A stretch of 61,639 bases of DNA, counting the filler, from Circinaria calcarea (Eukaryota), in the NCBI GenBank assembly GCA_051942165.1. It is 9 parts of 9 records of this genome, joined end to end, with 100 filler letters (N's around TTAATTAATTAA, not from the genome) between each part and the next. Parts side by side here need not be neighbours in the genome. Positions count along the whole stretch, not along the records: positions 48,031 to 54,785 come from JAVECS010001499.1; 8 more parts are not named here. One strand, given 5' to 3'. Below, one piece after another: positions 6,770-55,837 of this stretch (the first letter of the stretch is position 1; every line of letters begins with the position of its first letter). Below the pieces are notes generated by a model that did not search any database, was not told the DNA's origin, and worked only from the letters and a program-made list of their open reading frames with translations. The translations under genes and the position numbers were made by a program.

Positions 6770-6869
6770 NNNNNNNNNNNNNNNNNNNNNNNNNNNNNNN
6801 NNNNNNNNNNNNNTTAATTAATTAANNNNNNNNNNNNNNNNNNNNNNNNNNNNNNNNNNNNNNNNNNNN
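6770..6869. other. Artificial contig-joining spacer
   Basis: N44-TTAATTAATTAA-N44; the 12-mer gives stops in all six frames. Confidence 0.99.
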
Positions 6870-13634: not shown

Positions 13635-13734
13635 NNNNNNNNNNNNNNNNNNNNNNNNNNNNNNNNNNNNNNNNNNNNTTAATTAATTAANNNNNNNNNN
13701 NNNNNNNNNNNNNNNNNNNNNNNNNNNNNNNNNN
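13635..13734. other. Artificial contig-joining spacer
   Basis: N44-TTAATTAATTAA-N44. Confidence 0.99.
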
Positions 13735-14150
13735 AATTTTAACCACATCGGTCTTCGAAAGAAAGGTTCACGGAACGAACGACCGCGTGGTCAGTTCTGG
13801 GACCAGATATGGTTAAATGCGGCACAGGAGGGTGCGCGCCAGCGCTGAAAGGCTGGAATAAGCGGGAAGGAGAGGAAAGGGGGCAAGGACTTCGAAGGAC
13901 TAAAGGACTCTGGAGGGGGGCTGGCGAGTCGGGATGTGGGGGTCCGTCTTTGTAGGCCTTTACCTTTGCTCTACACGTTCATGATAGCCAAGAAGGGGGG
14001 AAATACAATGAATGTTTCAAACCCTCGGCGAATTCTAATTCAACCATGGGGGTTTCTCGTGTTCGTTTTCCGTTCGTGCGGAGATTTATGCAGTCCGAAA
14101 AACCACCCAAACGACATAATCTATATTTCCACTTCTGAAATTCAAATCAA

Positions 14151-15971
14151 CTAAGCCCTCAAATCTTTCCCTCGTGGCCTGATATTCACAAAGACATCCT
14201 GTGTAGTTGGCATAGCAGACGATGACGGCACCTTCAGATCCACTACTGGAGGCGTCTGACCCGGTGCGACCTCCAGATGAAGTCGGTCCAACGCCGTCGC
14301 CACAAAGATATAAATCTCAGACCGCGCGAAGAACCTACCGGGGCAGTAGGTGTTCCCGCCGCCGAACGGATGGTAGCCTTTAGCGTGCTGCAGACTCTTG
14401 TTGGCGAGAAAGCGAGTGGGGTCGAATTTCAATACCCCCGGACCAAATATGGACGGGTCTAGGTGGAACTGGCGGAAGGGACCGAGGACAGTCTCGCCGG
14501 CGTGGACTGTTTTACCACTGACAACTGTGTCTTCGGTGGCCTTGCGGGCGATAGCGGCATTGTTGTAGATGCGAAGAACCTCGTACCATACGGCGTCAAG
14601 GTGGGGGCAGTCTGATAGGAGGACATTCAGGTCTAGGGAGCCGTTGACCGAGAGTGCTTTGCGGGTCTCGAGGCGAATTTCAGTGAAGAGAGCCTGGTCG
14701 TAGAGAATATGGGCAAAGACCCAGAAGGATATCCGATGCGCATTGTGGTTGATTCTACAGTGGAGTCAGATTCTGTATATCATGAATGAGGATAGCCGCT
14801 GGATTGCGATGACTTACGCCCATGTGATCATCATCATGATTCCAGCTCTGTCGCGTGGATCGAGGCCTAGACTCTCGAGCTCAGAGTCCAAGGTCCGGAA
14901 TATCCACGCCAGTTCTGGTCGGTCCTCCGTCGGAAGCGCAAAGTACCTGACAAGATCGTCCAAAGCCTTGTCCTTGAGCTTATGTACATCTCTTGCCATG
15001 AATCGAGGATAGTTGTAGAAGATCTTCCAGCTTTCGTCCTCATAGGCTTGATAATTGGATAAAAATAAAGGGGACGTCTCGAAAAGCTTCGTGCCGAAGA
15101 AGCTTTTCATTGCACAATCCCCAAGTATATGTCTCGTGAACCGTTTCAATGAGATCAACTTCACATCTTCGTTGGAGGAAATGGAAAACAGGTCCGAGAG
15201 CTCAGGCCAGGATACCGACTCCATGAGGTAATGAGTGTACCTGTCTTGAAGACCCTTAAGATTCCCATTACCTCCGGGATGAAGTTGGTGTCGGAGCCAT
15301 TCACTTTGCATCTTGAAGTAGCACTTGCCATTTGGATTCGCTTTCGATAATAGAGCCGAAGTCCTGGCGTCCATTGATAATAAGTGCGCCGGGTCGTCAT
15401 GGAACATGTTTTCTATTACAGTGTGTCCGAATCCAAACGCCTTCATTATATTCTGAACGAATGGCTCGAAGGTAAACATGACTGGTTTTTTCCATATGGT
15501 ATTGACCTCTTGAATGGTTTGAATGATCACAATTTTCTGGCCGACGATTGTAAGCGCATAAGGCTCCTTGCTAGGGAAATATGAACTGCCGACGGTTCAG
15601 TTATTTGACTGCTTTCTTTATCCGCTTCAAATGGGCCTCTACGAAAATAGTAACTCACCGTCCGCGGTTGAATAGAGCTTGGGAACGGTGCATGAACTCC
15701 CAACTATGTCCTTCATCGAAGAATTAACTCAACTCCACTGAAGATCTGGCAGCAGATCTGGCAACAGAAGCAGCCTACCTACGAAAGGAATCCAATAAGG
15801 CAATGGCTTTGGCTCATGAGGCCAAAGCAGCGGGGCAACAGTAAACCTCCACAGCCGCCATATGAGCAACGGTGCCAAAAGAGATGCAGTGGCAAGTAGT
15901 ACAGTATAAGAGAGGGCGGCGAAAGGGAGCACTCCTCGGAACAGCAAGTGGTCTCGGTTGAAGTCCAACAT
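14151..15971 (-). CDS. Cytochrome P450, CYP7/prostacyclin-synthase-like group
   Basis: N-terminal TM plus PKPLPYWIPFVG|H, I-helix WA|INHNAHRISFW (intron 14817-14755), ExxR WYEVLR, FDPTRF, heme motif PFGGGNTYCPGRFFA; four exons splice in frame. Confidence 0.9.
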
Positions 15972-20498: not shown

Positions 20499-20598
20499 NN
20501 NNNNNNNNNNNNNNNNNNNNNNNNNNNNNNNNNNNNNNNNNNTTAATTAATTAANNNNNNNNNNNNNNNNNNNNNNNNNNNNNNNNNNNNNNNNNNNN
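20499..20598. other. Artificial contig-joining spacer
   Basis: N44-TTAATTAATTAA-N44. Confidence 0.99.
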
Positions 20599-27358: not shown

Positions 27359-27458
27359 NNNNNNNNNNNNNNNNNNNNNNNNNNNNNNNNNNNNNNNNNN
27401 NNTTAATTAATTAANNNNNNNNNNNNNNNNNNNNNNNNNNNNNNNNNNNNNNNNNNNN
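27359..27458. other. Artificial contig-joining spacer
   Basis: N44-TTAATTAATTAA-N44. Confidence 0.99.
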
Positions 27459-34217: not shown

Positions 34218-34317
34218 NNNNNNNNNNNNNNNNNNNNNNNNNNNNNNNNNNNNNNNNNNNNTTAATTAATTAANNNNNNNNNNNNNNNNNNNNNNNNNNN
34301 NNNNNNNNNNNNNNNNN
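34218..34317. other. Artificial contig-joining spacer
   Basis: N44-TTAATTAATTAA-N44. Confidence 0.99.
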
Positions 34318-41074: not shown

Positions 41075-41174
41075 NNNNNNNNNNNNNNNNNNNNNNNNNN
41101 NNNNNNNNNNNNNNNNNNTTAATTAATTAANNNNNNNNNNNNNNNNNNNNNNNNNNNNNNNNNNNNNNNNNNNN
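41075..41174. other. Artificial contig-joining spacer
   Basis: N44-TTAATTAATTAA-N44. Confidence 0.99.
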
Positions 41175-47930: not shown

Positions 47931-48030
47931 NNNNNNNNNNNNNNNNNNNNNNNNNNNNNNNNNNNNNNNNNNNNTTAATTAATTAANNNNNNNNNNNNNN
48001 NNNNNNNNNNNNNNNNNNNNNNNNNNNNNN
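47931..48030. other. Artificial contig-joining spacer
   Basis: N44-TTAATTAATTAA-N44. Confidence 0.99.
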
Positions 48031-48621
48031 AGAGCTCCAATCCTATCCACATGAGCCAAATCCTGCCCTTCTCCAACTCAACCCAGTCGATGAATCTCAG
48101 CTGTTCCATTGGGAAGCTGTAATGAAAGGTGTATCGGGGAGCGCATACGAAGGTATATATTGCCATTGCAAGCCACTATTCCCCATGCGCGCATCAATCA
48201 ACAGCCGAGTCAAAACTGGAAGGCTGATTTTGTTGCCGGAAGCTGGGCTATGGAAGCTTGATATTGGAATACCAGACAATTACCCCCTCGCTCCTCCAGC
48301 AATAAAATTTCTAACCCCCATATGTCACCCGAACGTTCACTTCAAGGTAGGCTCTCCCATGGAACCCCTCGCTTGAAGAGACCAGTTACCGACTTCCAAG
48401 GATAGACTGGGGAGATCTGCCTAGACCTACTCAAGACCTCCTGGACGCCCGCATATACAATATCATCGACTCTGACATCAATACACCAGCTTCTGACCTA
48501 CCCCGAGCCGGATAGTCCGCTCAATGTGGATGTGGCCTCACTACTGAGGCAAGGGGATCTCATAGGAGCGGAGGGACTGATCAGATGGTGCTGTGAGGAG
48601 TGGAGGTGGGACGGACGATAG
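48031..48621 (+). CDS. PEX4: Ubiquitin-conjugating enzyme E2, peroxin-4-like (5' truncated)
   Basis: LFHWEAVMKG...YE|AGLWKLDIGIPDNYPLAPP...ICHPNVHFK|TGEICLDLLKTSWTPAY...PEPDSPLNVDVASLLRQGD. Confidence 0.85.
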
Positions 48622-49390
48622 AGAACATCACATGTGAATATGGTAAATCTCGGTTGTGGGACTCCTGGAGCATAAAGGTCAGTGAACAAGGGTAGGCATT
48701 GAAAGTGTTTTGGATAGTGCCGAGTCTGATGTTTACAACGAAGTTCAGTGATTTAGAAGGTTGGTCAGGTTACTTATCAACAAGCCCATCGGTTCAATGG
48801 ATCAAAATACTTGAAACTTCCCGATAGTGCCTTTCAGTAATCCCATCTATTGGTACTATCTAAGGCCATACAAGGCTTCAAGGATTCAATGAACAGCCTA
48901 ATTAAGATCAATCGAACCGGGAGAAAGAAGTTCAACAAGCCCAACGATGGTCAACATTTCCTAGCCGTGGTTTCCAGCATCATCGTCGAATGGTAACGTC
49001 AATGTATCAAGCCTCATAAGGCTTTACGGGTTTTAAACCCTGTACGGATGAGAACATTCTCTGATTGAAGGTTTTCAAGTTTGATCGTCTGGACGTCTGC
49101 ATGGATCTCAATAAACCATATGAAGGCTTCGTGAACTCTTATAAGCTCTATCAGATGAACAGTAGACGTAAACAGTGTTCCTAGCATCACTGTTGAACAT
49201 CGGTGACGGGAAAAGTGCCGTTACCCCTCCCAATCTTCCAAGTCTATGCGTTGTCAGTGGGTGGCTGAGTAAGGGTGTGGCTGCGCAAGGTAGCTTCTCA
49301 GCCTGATTGGCTGAATACAATATGCATAAAGGTTGGGACTGCTGGTTGACCTCTCCACAACAAGACATATCTAAATAGCAAAAAGGAACT

Positions 49391-51597
49391 ATGGACCCGG
49401 CATCCATAATTGCTCTTGCAGCATCAGTCATCAGCATCATCGATGTGATCGGGAAAAGTCTCAGCTTCTTGCTCGATTTGCAAACAAAGTACCGAAAAGC
49501 TAGCCTTACGGTCAGCCTTCTGATCGGACAACTCTCTACAGTGAAAGCGGCGCTGAACCAGATTTCGCAATGGATCACTACGAGCCTGGTTGGGGTTCCT
49601 CAGCATCAGCAGCTCGTGGCAGATCTCGATGTTTCACTCGAGGCGTGCAAGGTTTTGGTTTTGGTCTTGGACGATCGCATCTTCCGTCATGAAAGCAGTC
49701 TAACCAGTCAAGTGAAGGCCGCGGCAAAAGCACGCTTTTTATGGGAGGAGAAGGATATGAATGATTATTTGAATCTTTTGAACAACCAGATCAACGCTCT
49801 GAACCTCCTTCTTACTGCTTTACAATGGTGAGCTCAGCACCGCGTTCAGGGCAATTGCGAATCTACTGACGAAGGCAAGCCGAACTTTGTTTGAGCAGAG
49901 AGACCTATTGCAAAGCAGTGAGAGCCGCCATATTATCAAGATGGTGGAAGATGACACCTCTTCACTCCTCTGGATAAGAGATACAGAGTCATATTCATGC
50001 TATAGCCGGAAAAGTGCGTTGACGGAGAATTCCGTTATGTTAGATACGGTTTTCGACTTCGACCGCGAGATCTTCCATTCCAGGGCATATCAAGTGGCAG
50101 CAAGGTCTAACATGAAGCAGGCACTCATAAACGGGAAACGTACAAATATGCAGCATGAAGTCTCAGACCTAGCTCTTGATAGTGGTCTAGCTAACTTCAT
50201 AAAACTTGATGATGACGATCAAGACATACAGACCATAAAGGAAGTACATACCAATTTCTCACAGCCATTGAGCAACACGACTGACGCTCAGATCTCCAAA
50301 GATTCACCTCTCAGACTCAACTTATTGACAAAAGAAAATTCGGCTTTACCAGATCCTCTAACTGGTAGAAGTCACCGTTTGGTAGAGTTTCTTGGGGATA
50401 GAAAAGAATCTCGCCGAAAACCGTGGAGTCTGGCCAACGCGTTCAAGTCTCGAAAAATCCAGCACGCTCGTGAGAAAGCACAACCCACTACTACAAGTAG
50501 AATGGAAAGCCAACGGAAAGAGCTCAACTGTTGTAGAGTTCTCCTCCTCGGCGCTTCGGAAAGTGGCAAAACGACTATCCTCAAGTCCCTGCAGCTTCTC
50601 CTTAGGGGTGGGTATACCCTCGCCGAACTTGGAGTTTTCAAGAAAATCATATTTAGTTATATGATCCAGAGTATGCGCGTACTCCTTGAAGAAATGGAAG
50701 GTTTAGAGATGCCTCTGGATGATCAGAAGAATGTGGATCACGTTTCAACAATTTTAATGCAACCCGTAGCTATGGAAGTGGAAAGCTTAGCGCCCGGAGT
50801 TATGGACGCAATGACGGCACTATGGAAGGATTCGAACGTACTAAAATATTTCCACAGGCCTAGGAAGCACTCATCTTCGGGTAATGCCGAGTAGTAAGCT
50901 CACAGTATCATTCTTGCACCAGTAAGATCTGTCTGATTGGCTCTTTTTTGGTTTTTTCGATTCTTTGAGCCGCATTGGCCAGGTCGAGTATTTGCCTACT
51001 GAGCAAGACATCCTTCGAAGCTACGTCAAAACCACAGGTATTAGCAGGAGCACTTTTCTGACCGAAGACGGCTACCTCGCCGATGTATTCGATGTAGGTG
51101 GCGCTCGAGCTGAGCGGAAGAAATGGGTACATTTGCGCGAGAATGTGGACTCTATCCTCTTTTGTGTAGATATATCAGCGTATGACCGAGTGCTACATGA
51201 GGATGGGATGACTAATCGGATGCAAGAAGCTTTGGCTTGGTTTTCTATCATCTGCAACTCGTCTCGGTTTGCGAAGACGGATATAATGTTGTACTTCACA
51301 AAGACTGATTTACTGGAGCCGAAACTCGCGATTACTCCGATTCAGAGTTGTTTCCCCGGATACAGCGGTGATCCGACAGATCCGCATGCGGTGATGGAAT
51401 ACATCTGCGACAGATTTGTGGAACTGAATCAAAATTCAGAAAAGAGAATCCGTGTGCAGTTTTCAGATATCAGAGATGTATGGAAGACCGCAACGACTAT
51501 CTCAGAATCTATCGATGATTGTATCCAAGAAAAGGGAATGGCGCTCACACGTGTCGGCTTAAACGCCCTTAGGGCAGAGAGTTTGAGCATTGAATAG
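49391..51597 (+). CDS. Fusion of a HeLo-like fungal N-terminal domain and a divergent heterotrimeric G-alpha domain
   Basis: Exon 1 49391-49827 MDPASIIALAASVISII... (HeLo-like); intron 49828-49879 in frame; exon 2 to 50893 with FDFDREIFHSRAY and P-loop VLLLGASESGKTT; exon 3 EQDILRSYVKTTGI, DVGGARAERKKW, FTKTD. Confidence 0.85.
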
Positions 51598-54032
51598 TAT
51601 CCAACGAAAGAGTGGAAGGGTACGTGAATTTTCTACGTAAACACAGGAAATAATGGCTGATCGCTTTAAGCTGTTGCCTTGGCATGGGAGCTATTCGATC
51701 TTCACCCTTCGAGATCTCACACCAGGGTACGTTTCCTTCGACCATATGAGAATACGACGAAATGCCAGACTCGGAAACCCAGCTTCCGGGGTATCCAAGA
51801 GGGGTGGTGGTAGGGAGTGTAAGATAGGACGATTTTCCCTGTGCTCGGAGAACAAGCGATGCAGGAAAGACACCGGGGGTGGGTAAGAGAAATTGAAGTT
51901 TGCTTGCTGGGATAAGTGCTACGACAGAGGGAGAGCATAACTATGTATGTACCCTCTATTGGCGGAAGTTGTATTCTCGGCCGATGGAATAAGCTATGAA
52001 GTCATTATAGCAGACGACCCTGGCATGCTCGGTACGAATGTTATGTTGCATGAAATCCAATAACTCTCTCAAAACTGATCTGCTGTATTACCCTTCACCA
52101 AAGAAGCTTCTTTATACGATTGAATAATGCCAATGCTATGGGTTGTTGTCGTTTGACATCCGTCTGCAAAAACGAAAAACTGAGTGCGACTGTGGGAAAA
52201 TGGTAAAAGAGTAACTAACCACCTACTAAAGTGGCGCAGGAATGGAGGTAATGGACAAGAACTCCAGATGGATATCGCTGAACACAGCTTCCCTGGCTAC
52301 GCATCAATCAGTCTCCCCTCTATCTAATCCCATTTCCCACTATCAAGTCGAAGCTGTTGAGCGACATGGTGGCATATATTACTATCTGAGTGTGTAACTA
52401 TCTAAGCTAGCATACAGCGAAGACCGCTTTGAAGAGGTGTGTAGAGAGCGTTTGAGCATGGACCACGCATTACCCCTTAGGTAACACGTGAATCGGTAAG
52501 CCCTATGCCTTCCAACGGAAACTCCCTTTCAACCTACCAGCACCCTTTCTTTCTCCCTCACTTTCCCTAAAATACTCCCCTTCCACCCTCTATTTCCCTT
52601 TCGCTCTACTATTCCAACTCCAAACACCCCACTCACCTCTCCAAACCCCATCTCCTCCACCAAAGCGCAACGTTATCAAAACTCGTTCTACACCGAGCAC
52701 GCCTGTCCGTCCCGCCCATTCGCCCATTGGTACCAGCCTGAGCTTTCTGCAAACTAAGACGATAGCGAAGGGTTGCCGGAGCTGGCTTCCGCCAGAGACC
52801 CTGGGGGCCCGGGGCAGGTGGGGATTATTGCGGTACTGGCTGTGCGGTGGGTTCGGACGGTGGGAGCGGAGAGTCGGTGGATTTTGGCTTAAATGAAAGA
52901 AGGGAGTCCCATCGCCTGGGAGTTAGCATTCAAGGTTATTTGTCGTGTGTAGGTGCTCTCTTGGCGGCTATCCTGTCTAGTGTATGTTCCCCGGGCTTTG
53001 GACATTTTAATGCATTGCTGAAGAAAATCGTAGAATGGTTTCGAACTTTGGAAATGTTCTCCGTTGTCTCTGACGTTTTGGTGGATGGCTTCGATTTGGT
53101 AAGGGTACTTCGCTGCTGCAATGACAATACGTATGCTTTTCAAACTGCAGTATTTCTGCTGGCAAACTCGAAATGAATCCTGCAGCCGCATACATGATTT
53201 ATCCTTGTCGATAGTTTCAGAGTAGGCCGCATTGCTTGTCGTAGAGAATCGCAGAAGAGACCTGCGGCAATGCGGTCCTTCAGATTATATAAACGCCCAC
53301 CATAAGCCATATCAGCAAAAGGTGCCTTTGCTGGAAATGGACAGGACATGTCATTAACTCTCATGCGGGCACGCAATATTGCGCTGCTTTCAAATAATAC
53401 ACGATAAGTTTTGCAGGTACATGGGAAAAATGACCGGACGTTCCTTCTGCACTGTACAGGATGATCACTCTTGAACGGCGCTACAGAGGGTGAAGCTAGA
53501 TTTTTGAATACAGAATAAGTTAGGGTTGATAGAAGTTGAAAACGCGAGGTAGTAGATAATATCTTCTCCTACCGGTAAAAATTTTTCATTAAATGCTGCT
53601 TCAAAAGACTCGTGAGAGTATATGGCTTCTGAGCCTAGTAGGCAATATGTCAATTATAACTCACGTATTTATAAATCATTTTGTTGGAATCGCGGAATTG
53701 ACTATCAATTTCTATCCTCCCAAAAGCCCTTGGGGGTTGCGCTAAACAAGCATAGCATGGTGGTATTCAGTACTTTGGAACCGAACAATCCAATCGGGTT
53801 ATGATGCCTCTAATAGGTGAGGTCCATACAAAAAGGCCTTGAAATATGGTAGCAGATCGCTGTATAACCTTTGACACCATGCTATATTAGGACTGCTTGA
53901 TCCATATAGCAGCGCAGTTGAAGTAGTGCGTGTCGTATCCAGTCGGGATATAAGCTGCCTTATTTTCAGCATGACCTACGCCTTAGAGAAGGTATCTAAC
54001 AGTCCTCTATAACTTTATCACGGATGATGTTG

Positions 54033-54785
54033 TCAGTCAAACGGTACTCGTCTTAGACTTTCGCCAGCTTCTTTCTTCTTAGCTTCTTGCGCAGCAGCAA
54101 CCGTGCTCGGTATTTTGATCCCACAGCAATCGCCCCATGCATCGTCACGATGGACATGCCTTGGTCCTTCTCCATGGTCTTGGTTTTCCCCCGCTTTCTC
54201 AATTTCTGCTACCTCAACCTCACTCTCCTTTCTCATCCCATCCTCCGCAGGGATCATACTTCCGAAAAGGAAATGTTGCATAATGGGCAATTTGCCCAAC
54301 ACCTCCTTTACAAACATCCTTCTCATACCCTGCTCCACTTTCTCCCAGCTTTTTGCCCCAGAGATGTCATCCAACATCGGTTGTGTCCACTTCAGACCCT
54401 TTATGCTTTTCGTCGCCATTGTCCAACGTACCATGTCCAGATATAAGTACTCGTTCCCTTCTTCTTCAAGCACCAGATCGTTATGAATACTTAGCGGTCG
54501 AATATATGGGTGATGGAGTAATTGAGAGGCGCCGAATAGGAAAGGCAAGAAGTGATAGTCGTCAAGTCCCCAGACTCCATGAGAACCAGCGGGTTCTAGA
54601 TAGTATGTCGACTGTATCTTCCGAAGTAGCCTGACATAAGAAGGAAAGACCACGAGAGTAACGGCTGGAAACGTTGGTGGGGAGAGTAGGGAAAGGCGGT
54701 TGAGGCACAGGAGCCACAGAACGAAATTGAGTTCATGGCCTGAACCATAGTCAATGCGGGCGCGTGATCCAAAAGCATGCTGGAG
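54033..54785 (-). CDS. RRD2: PP2A phosphatase activator PTPA/Rrd2 (5' truncated)
   Basis: [70 protein letters not shown]-terminal VPFD. Confidence 0.92.
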
Positions 54786-54885
54786 NNNNNNNNNNNNNNN
54801 NNNNNNNNNNNNNNNNNNNNNNNNNNNNNTTAATTAATTAANNNNNNNNNNNNNNNNNNNNNNNNNNNNNNNNNNNNNNNNNNNN
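54786..54885. other. Artificial contig-joining spacer
   Basis: N44-TTAATTAATTAA-N44. Confidence 0.99.
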
Positions 54886-55837
54886 TTAATCTATCCCGCC
54901 ACTCTTTTGTTCGAATTGCTGCAATATCGGCCCTTGCAGCCGCTACTTCTGTTGCATTGGCCACGACTTCTCCATGAGTGTCATCAGACTTCTGCCTTAG
55001 TTCCGTGACGCCCTGATCTAGAGCTACTGCTAACGCCTTTTTATTACTTGACTCCTGTGCTCGGTCCGCCGCAATATCGGCCATTGCAGCTGCTACCTCC
55101 GTTGCAGTGGCCGCAACCTTTGTCTGGATGATATCGGATTTTTGCATTAAGTCCGTTAGGCCTTGGTCTAGAGCTAGAGCCAACGACCTTTTCTATGAGT
55201 CAGCATCGAGTGTCAGGAATAGTATAAAAAGTTGATGGAGGTATATTGTAAACAACAACGCCGAAGACAGCCTTCGAGAGAATATTTGCTAAAAATTTCA
55301 GGAAGAGTAATACCAGCTCGACAATATCTCCAGAAGTTAAGTTCGAGAGCATGGTGTAATAAGCTTGGCTAAAGCAGACAGGACAAATAGAAGCAGTCAT
55401 CGCACATACGCATGCTCGGTGGTCAAAGCCAGGTTGAAATTCGCCTTATATCTTTCAATCTTCGCGATGACTTTGTCCACCTCCCTACTGCTGAAAGGCC
55501 ACTTCAGAGCTTGGAACCCGAATTTCCTCATCTGATCCGTCCCATCGCCCGGCTGCAGCCTCGTCTCCAAATCCGTCAAGTCGATCTTACATTGATGCAA
55601 TAGCCCATCGGGTTTATTCAACAGATCCAGCACAGTTAGCTTTGCGGACTTAGGGGCATCAGCAAGCTCAGATATACCAACTAGAACGTCCTGCAGAGTC
55701 GTCACTTCATCGCGCAGGCGTTGAATGTCCTTCCGGGAGTTCTTCATTTCGAGGTAGTATCTCCGACAGTGATCGAAGACTCGGCTTGCTAGAGCGACTA
55801 CAGTGAGTACGCTTGCGGCTCCGCTTAGTGGATCCAT
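54886..55837 (-). CDS. HeLo-like N-terminal domain protein, probable fungal NLR/STAND (3' truncated)
   Basis: MDPLSGAASVLTVV...IQRLRDEV...ALKWPFSSREV...IERYKANFNLAL; intron 55409-55188; then two ~50-aa helical repeats. No NACHT is visible before the contig end. Confidence 0.75.

Follow-up and report, generated by a model that had tools for sequence, protein, structure and literature searches.

A spliced gene joins an N-terminal helical domain to G-alpha

The window analysed here is a stretch of 61,639 nucleotides from Circinaria calcarea (GenBank assembly GCA_051942165.1), and it carries at positions 49391–51597, on the plus strand, a gene that joins an N-terminal helical domain of the HeLo-like type to a G-alpha domain through a linker (Table 1). 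When the coordinates of its three exons were joined by script, they gave 702 codons and a stop (2109 nt) with no internal stop codon. The original prediction for this DNA had read the region as a single gene for a HeLo-like-type N-terminal domain, a linker and a full G-alpha, and the Pfam matches, the open reading frame (ORF) and the alignment bear this out. At the level of sequence, the fused gene is confirmed as a real feature of the window, with a gene model that rests on homology.

An in-frame TAG precedes the ATG of exon 1. The Cys codon formed at the first junction lies on an alignment column that has Cys in 10 of the 11 family rows shown, and the position of intron 1 is identical in two relatives from metagenomes (L002 and L013). 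The Asp codon at the second junction falls on a conserved Asp of the G-alpha helical domain in the alignment, and the window protein has a 4-residue insertion immediately after it. Even without splicing, exon 2 encodes the tail of the N-terminal module with its FDFDREIF motif, then the linker, and continues into G-alpha with the P-loop and the greater part of the helical domain. Because this single open frame spans both, the fusion of the N-terminal module to G-alpha does not depend on the predicted splice. The tail of the module is conserved in the family members and also in the ankyrin-repeat protein P0054.

A deposited hypothetical protein from a C. calcarea metagenome-assembled genome (P0004, 679 aa) is 100 % identical to 96 % of the exon 2 translation. 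In that model both introns are spliced differently: intron 1 is partially read through, which adds about 11 residues, and about 30 conserved residues of the G-alpha helical domain (window 50838–50990) are spliced out. A tblastn search of the window with canonical G-alpha found this gene only and no second copy.

Table 1. Positions of the fusion gene, its parts and other features of the window
Feature	Position	Strand	Remarks
Exon 1	49391–49827	+	N-terminal four-helix domain, residues 1–145 and two bases of the Cys146 codon; starts MDPAS
Intron 1	49828–49879	+	52 nt, GTGAGC...AG, phase 2; junction codon TG/C = Cys
Exon 2	49880–50880	+	single open frame
Tail of conserved N-terminal module (start of exon 2)	49880–50090	+	ends in FDFDREIFHSRAY motif (50052–50090)
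Linker	50091–50489	+	weakly conserved, no Pfam match
G-alpha, first part	50490–50880	+	alpha-N remnant, P-loop GASESGKTT (50550–50576), most of the helical domain; PF00503, 82.1 bits
Intron 2	50881–50926	+	46 nt, GTAATG...AG, phase 1; junction codon G/AT = Asp
Exon 3	50927–51597	+	end of helical domain, switch I, switch II, TKTD, degenerate G5, divergent extended tail; PF00503, 198.3 bits
Stop codon TAG	51595–51597	+	end of exon 3
Partial PTPA gene	54033–54785	-	sole recognisable neighbour on the same 6755-bp piece
Spacers	6770–6869, 13635–13734, 20499–20598, 27359–27458, 34218–34317, 41075–41174, 47931–48030, 54786–54885		

The G-alpha domain keeps binding residues and has lost hydrolytic ones

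Both parts of the G-alpha domain score above the PF00503 cut-off of 48.8 bits (residues 204–329 in exon 2), and their matches span positions 8–134 and 144–326 of the 333 in the profile. We fixed the residue numbering by HMMER alignment to G(o) alpha. By this numbering, Gly42 of the P-loop (here GASESGKTT) is replaced by Ser (TCG at 50556), Arg178 of switch I by Tyr (TAC at 51022) and Gln204 of switch II by Ala (GCT at 51103); the NKxD motif reads TKTD (51298–51309), with Thr for Asn269. All of these had been predicted at these same codons, and the sequence and the G(o) alpha alignment agree. The G5 box is degenerate, with SDIRDV for TCATDT. Both residues of hydrolysis, the switch I Arg and the switch II Gln, are therefore among those replaced, while the residues that bind phosphate, Mg and guanine remain, namely GxxxSGK[ST], the switch I Thr (VKTTG), DxxG (DVGG), and the Lys and Asp of NKxD. 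Judged by these motifs, the window protein has the G-alpha fold yet is no canonical GTPase.

The canonical fungal protein P0058 is 39 % identical to the window protein over 351 columns, and the G-alpha fold is complete in both. Unlike FadA, GNA-1, MagB and animal Gi/Go, the window protein has neither an MGxxxS start nor a CGLx tail. About 350 residues precede its G-alpha part, with no MGxxxS before that part, and these extra N-terminal residues, together with the replacement of Gly42, Arg178, Gln204 and Asn269, set it apart from canonical G-alphas. The C-terminal tail is longer than and unlike the canonical ...CGLL, ends about 20 residues past the G-alpha match and is not conserved across the family. 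The alignment thus upheld the earlier view that the lipidation start is gone and the tail altered and extended. A likeness of the helical domain to group I G-alpha had also been noted; the best solved-structure matches of the G-alpha part are indeed Go/Gi, and its nearest canonical row is P0058, in a comparison that held no group II or III sequence.

The full-length model is that of the homologue P0005 (45 % identity to the window protein). In this model the predicted local distance difference test score (pLDDT) is about 90 for G-alpha, 59–74 for the N-terminal domain and below 50 for about 150 residues of the linker. Its G-alpha part superposes on transducin and Gi alpha-1 with a template modelling (TM) score of 0.91–0.93 and a root-mean-square deviation (rmsd) of about 2 Å, and the linker is predicted to be disordered in this relative.

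Substitutions at two of the altered positions have been studied in Gi alpha-1, where G42V and Q204L are GTPase-deficient (Bosch et al., 2012; PMC3285607), and every replacement of the Ras residue Gly12 except Pro is activating (PMC3285607). The original prediction had also taken G42R to be established as GTPase-deficient. This is contradicted by the same source, in which G42R hydrolyses normally and cannot reach the active conformation (PMC3285607).

The N-terminal domain is related to PF17111

PF17111 (PigL_N, formerly Helo_like_N) is the HeLo-like domain of the literature on fungal nucleotide-oligomerization domain (NOD)-like receptors (NLRs) (PMC9815663). Of the two profile matches expected from the original prediction, the C-terminal one to G-alpha was found above its cut-off, while exon 1 matched PF17111 at E 2.9e-4, with 20.7 bits against a cut-off of 27.2. 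Six of the first seven homologues match the same profile at E 1.6e-4 to 3.9e-3, all under the cut-off, and 45 of 96 relatives of the N-terminal domain match it at E <= 0.01 (best 8.9e-9), with no other family recurring. One family member, P0144, lies above the cut-off at 33.6 bits. With hhalign, the family profile aligned end to end with a second, above-threshold PF17111 ORF of the window (55400–55837; 67.9 % probability, E 4.9e-5). In a feature search of the ESM Atlas, PF17111 sets made up 23 of the 30 nearest clusters and scored up to 0.97; others were SesA.

The protein starts MDPAS, then enters a helix at residues 3–33, and M1, D2 and P3 are invariant or nearly so across the family. This first helix is hydrophobic, and exon 1 encodes a single Cys. 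An AlphaFold2 model of exon 1 made with 96 aligned relatives (pLDDT 83.9, predicted TM score 0.81) has long helices at 3–33, 39–65, 70–98 and 120–144 and a short one at 110–117. VIA-align matched the N-terminal domain with the MLKL executioner domain (Z 10.3–10.7, rmsd 2.5–2.6, 100–116 residues) and with plant coiled-coil CC and CC-R domains (NRC2, NRG1.1, Sw-5b, MLA13 and Rx; Z 9–12), all at Z-scores below about 13, which by the tool's own warning are common for helical bundles. The HeLo domain of HET-s was absent from the 50 matches listed in either run.

Distant relatives of the domain head larger proteins. In locus L022 (926–5322) it is followed directly by NACHT, WHD and ankyrin repeats, and in locus L016 (9950–13203) by ankyrin repeats, both at 23–30 % identity; the Talaromyces ankyrin protein P0054 is headed likewise. 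L022 and L016 are classical NLR-type and PigL-type architectures, respectively.

The fusion defines a family spread across the Pezizomycotina

With the first 250 residues of P0004 as query, 52 proteins that share the N-terminal module were found, most of them with G-alpha. The suggestion that similar fusions might already exist as database annotations was thus correct; 'G-protein alpha subunit-domain-containing protein' and 'Fungal N-terminal domain-containing protein' are among the names given to these proteins. Members come from Lecanoromycetes (Xylographa, Lasallia, Calogaya), Leotiomycetes (Venustampulla, Sclerotinia, Stromatinia), Eurotiomycetes (Aspergillus section Flavi, Talaromyces) and Sordariomycetes (Xylariaceae, Monosporascus, Paramyrothecium), and also from Trypethelium. 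As far as database sequences tell, the architecture is widespread, being present in five classes of Pezizomycotina, and the finding is more general than the original prediction knew: a family, and not a one-off.

An exhaustive search with exon 1 gave 796 clusters (50 % identity) at E <= 0.001, 341 of them at E <= 1e-10. Among the best 150 hits to the N-terminal domain, 50 representatives were at least 280 aa long; 35 had a G-alpha match (E <= 1e-5) and 15 had no hit at all, and these 50 contained no NACHT, NB-ARC, repeat or other non-GTPase domain. Many of the remaining exon 1 hits are about 145 aa long and end where intron 1 starts, the pattern expected of prokaryote-style gene calling. Separately, the annotation of one family member of 1184 aa (P0033) adds a fusion to short-chain dehydrogenase domains ('atnD'), probably a merged gene model.

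We tallied the key G-alpha residues in the window protein and 65 proteins of at least 500 aa, a set of 66 rows that includes two non-fusions and several fragmentary models (Table 2). Across these rows the hallmarks of the family are only the loss of Gln204 and the change of Gly42 to Ser. All three of the positions singled out by the original prediction are replaced in this copy, but Arg178 is no hallmark of the family; its loss reads as a lineage feature common to the window protein, its closest relative P0056 (Tyr at 178, Thr at 204) and Aspergillus. The switch II residues past position 204 (R.ERKKW) are well conserved in the family.

Table 2. Retention of canonical G-alpha residues in the 66-row alignment
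Residue	Rows that keep it	Other residues
Gly42	4/66	Ser 48
Lys46	57/66	
Arg178	21/66 (21/54 rows with a residue there)	Tyr 14, gaps 12
Switch I Thr (or Ser)	45/66	
Asp200	50/66	
Gly203	49/66	
Gln204	2/66	Ser 15, Ala 9, Thr 9, Val 8, others 12, gaps 11
Asn269	2/66	Thr 36, His 14
Lys270	50/66	
Asp272	54/66	

A maximum-likelihood tree built from the G-alpha parts set the window protein and 29 family rows apart from 11 canonical G-alphas by a single branch with support 100/99, and the terminal branches of the family were much longer than the canonical ones. This tree omits six family rows and one canonical row, because six lacked a match to the P-loop pattern and one gave an overlong cut piece. 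By path length in the tree, P0058 is the canonical row closest to the window protein; it has an MGCAQS start and a CGLL end. The near search gave 20 proteins, none recognisable as fungal group II or III, so the tree speaks only to the separation of the family from these 11 canonical rows.

One member of the family has very probably been named before. A fourth G-alpha, GaoC (AFLA_124830), is reported from Aspergillus flavus and A. oryzae; it has Ser in place of the catalytic Gln and was called 'probably catalytically inactive' (PMC5869405). It was described with a G_alpha domain only and with a P-loop that lacks its glycines, and that study did not delete it and calls its role unstudied (PMC5869405). 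The A. flavus proteins P0030 and P0217 (673–690 aa) have the same N-terminal module and G-alpha as the window protein and, like GaoC, Ser at the Gln204 position. The window protein is like P0217, P0030 and P0032 in having a residue other than Gln at 204 and a GxSxSGK[ST] P-loop; the counterparts of its TKTD and DVGG in Aspergillus are HKxD and DASG. The 90 % cluster of these proteins also contains P0219, a 358-aa model from A. oryzae RIB40 that starts inside the gene and lacks the P-loop; it is a truncated form of the 690-aa protein with N-terminal domain and G-alpha (P0217). Because the long A. flavus models hold an intact P-loop (GSSKSGKST) and the N-terminal domain, the published description of the GaoC P-loop probably rests on a truncated gene model.

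A related gene evolves fast under weak constraint

A metagenome scan with the 11-row family alignment as query found 22 loci. Eleven of them (L001–L010 and L012) are one related gene from eleven metagenome assemblies with the same three-exon layout. We aligned eight of these, omitting L005, L009 and L012, and found two lineages that differ at 91–100 of 2450 bases (about 3.9 %) with no gap column. The set of eleven is a ready-made population sample.

Between L002 and L010, the Nei-Gojobori method counted 27.7 synonymous and 51.3 non-synonymous differences over 2157 coding bases, with no indel or stop. This gives a synonymous rate (dS) of 0.059, a non-synonymous rate (dN) of 0.031 and a dN/dS of 0.53, with a synonymous excess over neutrality (p = 0.006). 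By part, dN/dS was 0.41 for the N-terminal domain, 0.07 for the tail of the N-terminal module, 0.75 for the linker and 0.44–0.74 for G-alpha, the highest value belonging to its second half. On these figures the family is weakly constrained and fast-evolving. Such weak constraint, measured on one sequence pair, would be compatible with either a relaxed function or the mixed selection of conflict-related genes.

The rates bear on whether the gene could be a decaying, functionless relic, in which a duplicated G-alpha has drifted and become fused by chance to an N-terminal domain. The lost catalytic residues, the high dN/dS (above all in the linker and the second half of G-alpha) and the long branches in the tree are what a relic would present, and GaoC itself was set down as probably inactive without further study (PMC5869405). 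Yet the 702-codon frame is intact with canonical splice sites, five fungal classes have preserved the architecture, binding residues persist selectively where catalytic ones are lost, and the G-alpha scores of the window protein (82 + 198 bits) are within the range of its relatives. Moreover, the dN/dS of the relative is significantly below 1, with no indel in 2450 nt between two lineages, and this constraint on the family argues against a pseudogene. The original prediction had set against itself a neutral decay of this copy beside homologues that keep Arg178 and Gln204; Gln204 is kept in just two of the 66 rows and Arg178 in 21, and the relative is under constraint. A pseudogene is unlikely, and we rate outright decay into a relic as very improbable.

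Genomic context and the NLR-like alternative

The window consists of nine contigs of about 6.7 kb joined by eight spacers (44 N, TTAATTAATTAA, 44 N; Table 1). Because these are separate contigs joined end to end, gene adjacency across the spacers is meaningless. The fusion gene lies on the piece at 48031–54785 (6755 bp), where no Pfam-recognisable ORF was found between 51650 and 54030. As cluster neighbours we considered genes for ABC and OPT transporters and a second PigL_N gene, and rejected them, the pieces of the window not being contiguous; the ABC transporter and the second PigL_N gene are not true neighbours because they lie on other contig pieces. That second, unrelated gene (55400–55837, minus strand, towards 54886) begins with a PF17111 domain above the cut-off (35.8 bits) and starts MDPLS. 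Two similar units of about 45 residues follow in the ORF at 54886–55192, and the gene is cut by the spacer.

The window, L002 and L013 show no conserved synteny. Next to the family member in L013, a convergent NACHT/NPHP3_N ORF (13759–15627, minus strand) lies about 1.6 kb downstream, so that a NACHT neighbour is present in one of three independent contexts (the window's own contig, the L002 group and L013).

The original prediction had proposed an NLR-like receptor in which G-alpha takes the place of NACHT or NB-ARC, possibly as a decoy or guard against targeting of G-alpha, regulators of G-protein signalling (RGS) or G-beta-gamma. HeLo-like domains do head fungal NLRs (PMC9815663, PMC12881547), a distant relative of the N-terminal domain heads the NACHT-ankyrin protein of L022, one family member lies close to a convergent NACHT gene, and the family has a patchy distribution with long branches. 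However, the window protein ends after G-alpha, and neither it nor the 50 long representatives has sensor repeats or a NOD domain; because these are missing, the proposal is unsupported. The single NACHT neighbour weighs little in fungal genomes rich in NLR genes. We know of no NLR-type oligomer for G-alpha, which also counts against it. Gln204 and Arg178 are the target residues of G-alpha-modifying toxins, and a decoy for such enzymes is weakened by the loss of Gln204 and, here, also of Arg178. An NLR-like receptor thus seems improbable to us.

Discussion

Fungal HeLo-like domains are controlled by amyloid templating, NLR NOD modules or kinase-like domains, and G-alpha proteins are receptor-cycled switches. 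The family found here couples the two: a HeLo-like domain is joined to a G-alpha from which hydrolytic residues have been systematically removed while binding residues are kept. By analogy with MLKL, we propose that a non-cycling, GTP-binding and hydrolysis-impaired G-alpha regulates or localises the HeLo-like domain in this family, which is probably that of GaoC; we see about an even chance that this is right. The G-alpha module would still bind GTP-Mg and turn it over very slowly, because the binding residues are kept while the hydrolytic ones are removed. It would probably not be cycled by a G-protein-coupled receptor, because the lipidation start and the conserved receptor-binding tail are missing. 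Instead, it may act through the flexible linker as a long-lived nucleotide-state or partner-binding module that restrains, localises or releases the N-terminal HeLo-like domain.

The parallels would be MLKL, whose pseudokinase controls a four-helix bundle, and the HELL-kinase fusions of fungi; a kinase or pseudokinase domain is the fusion partner of some HELL domains (PMC12881547). MLKL, HET-S, HELLP and the HELL-kinase fusions share with the window protein, as modelled, an N-terminal four-helix bundle with a hydrophobic first helix. In MLKL the C-terminal regulator is a catalytically dead enzyme fold, a pseudokinase, whereas the window protein has G-alpha instead; across MLKL, HeLo and HELL proteins the regulators are a pseudokinase, an amyloid motif or a NOD, and the structural Z-scores to MLKL are within the range of generic bundles. 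The N-terminal domain of related proteins would be a membrane-targeting executioner, and the output here, membrane attack or tethering only, is speculative.

A bolder version makes the family a new class of cell-death or immune effector, in which a GTP-locked G-alpha silences a pore-forming HeLo-like bundle until the state of a partner changes. Its triggers could be the loss or capture of G-beta-gamma or RGS, or tampering with G-protein pathways by a competitor or parasite. We think this version unlikely, though if it were true, surveillance of heterotrimeric G proteins would be wired straight to membrane attack.

Several points weigh against the proposal that a hydrolysis-impaired G-alpha controls a HeLo-like domain. 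To our knowledge, Ser at position 42 is unstudied in G-alpha, and the behaviour of G42R described above means that substitutions at this position need not abolish hydrolysis. The degenerate G5 box (SDI for TCA) and TKTD could mean that nucleotide affinity is low or absent. On the side of the N-terminal domain, the Pfam score of exon 1 falls short of the cut-off, a Foldseek search of the modelled domain against the PDB found nothing at E <= 0.001, and a search of the domain profile against PDB sequences gave noise only, the best match being a coronavirus spike heptad repeat at E 0.0088. In VIA-align, designed bundles and unrelated helical proteins scored as high as MLKL and the plant domains or higher, with designed proteins at the top. 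For the assignment of this domain, the sequence evidence is stronger than the structural evidence. A dN/dS of 0.53 is weak constraint and comes from the relatives L002 and L010, not from the window copy, and the function of every family member is a prediction from sequence and models.

The main rival is an atypical scaffold G-alpha that resembles the extra-large G proteins (XLGs) of plants and binds G-beta-gamma, RGS or both largely independently of nucleotide, its N-terminal domain merely standing in for the lost lipid anchor as a membrane tether or coiled-coil adaptor with no role in cell death. XLG1–3 have the layout of the window protein, an N-terminal extension followed by a C-terminal G-alpha-like domain with deviating catalytic motifs, and they bind G-beta-gamma and RGS in a nucleotide-independent manner (PMC8584482) and act in immunity (PMC8584482; PMC4846371). 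A scaffold would also fit the conserved R.ERKKW of switch II, the hydrophobic first helix of the N-terminal domain, and the finding that G42R favours binding of G-beta-gamma and GoLoco in any nucleotide state (PMC3285607). On the other hand, the linker, predicted to be disordered in P0005, takes most of the place of the alpha-N helix, which contacts G-beta; the conservation of nucleotide-binding residues argues that nucleotide binding still matters; and an N-terminal domain of the PF17111/SesA kind is elsewhere an effector domain and not an anchor. We regard the scaffold as doubtful, while keeping it foremost among the alternatives. The N-termini also differ, that of XLGs being Cys-rich and zinc-finger-like with a nuclear localisation signal (PMC8584482), whereas the window protein has a PF17111-type bundle with one Cys in exon 1. 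Compared by description, XLGs and the fungal family are likely to be of independent origin.

The combination of a HeLo-like domain with a pseudo-GTPase appears to be undescribed as an architecture, and the window gene is one member of an annotated but uncharacterised family. In our literature searches we met no paper on HeLo-like domains combined with G-alpha, although supplements may list such architectures. A 2025 review of fungal cell death (PMC12881547) has no mention of 'G protein' or 'GTPase', a paper on fungal NLR effector domains (PMC9815663) none of 'G-alpha' or 'GTPase', and a review of plant G-alpha proteins names deviating catalytic motifs in Dictyostelium, Naegleria and plants and none in fungi (PMC8584482).

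If GaoC belongs to the family, as seems very probable, it is a genetically tractable member in which the idea can be tested. Should the family prove active, it would provide a third kind of regulator for MLKL-type executioners and a fungal counterpart of the plant XLGs.

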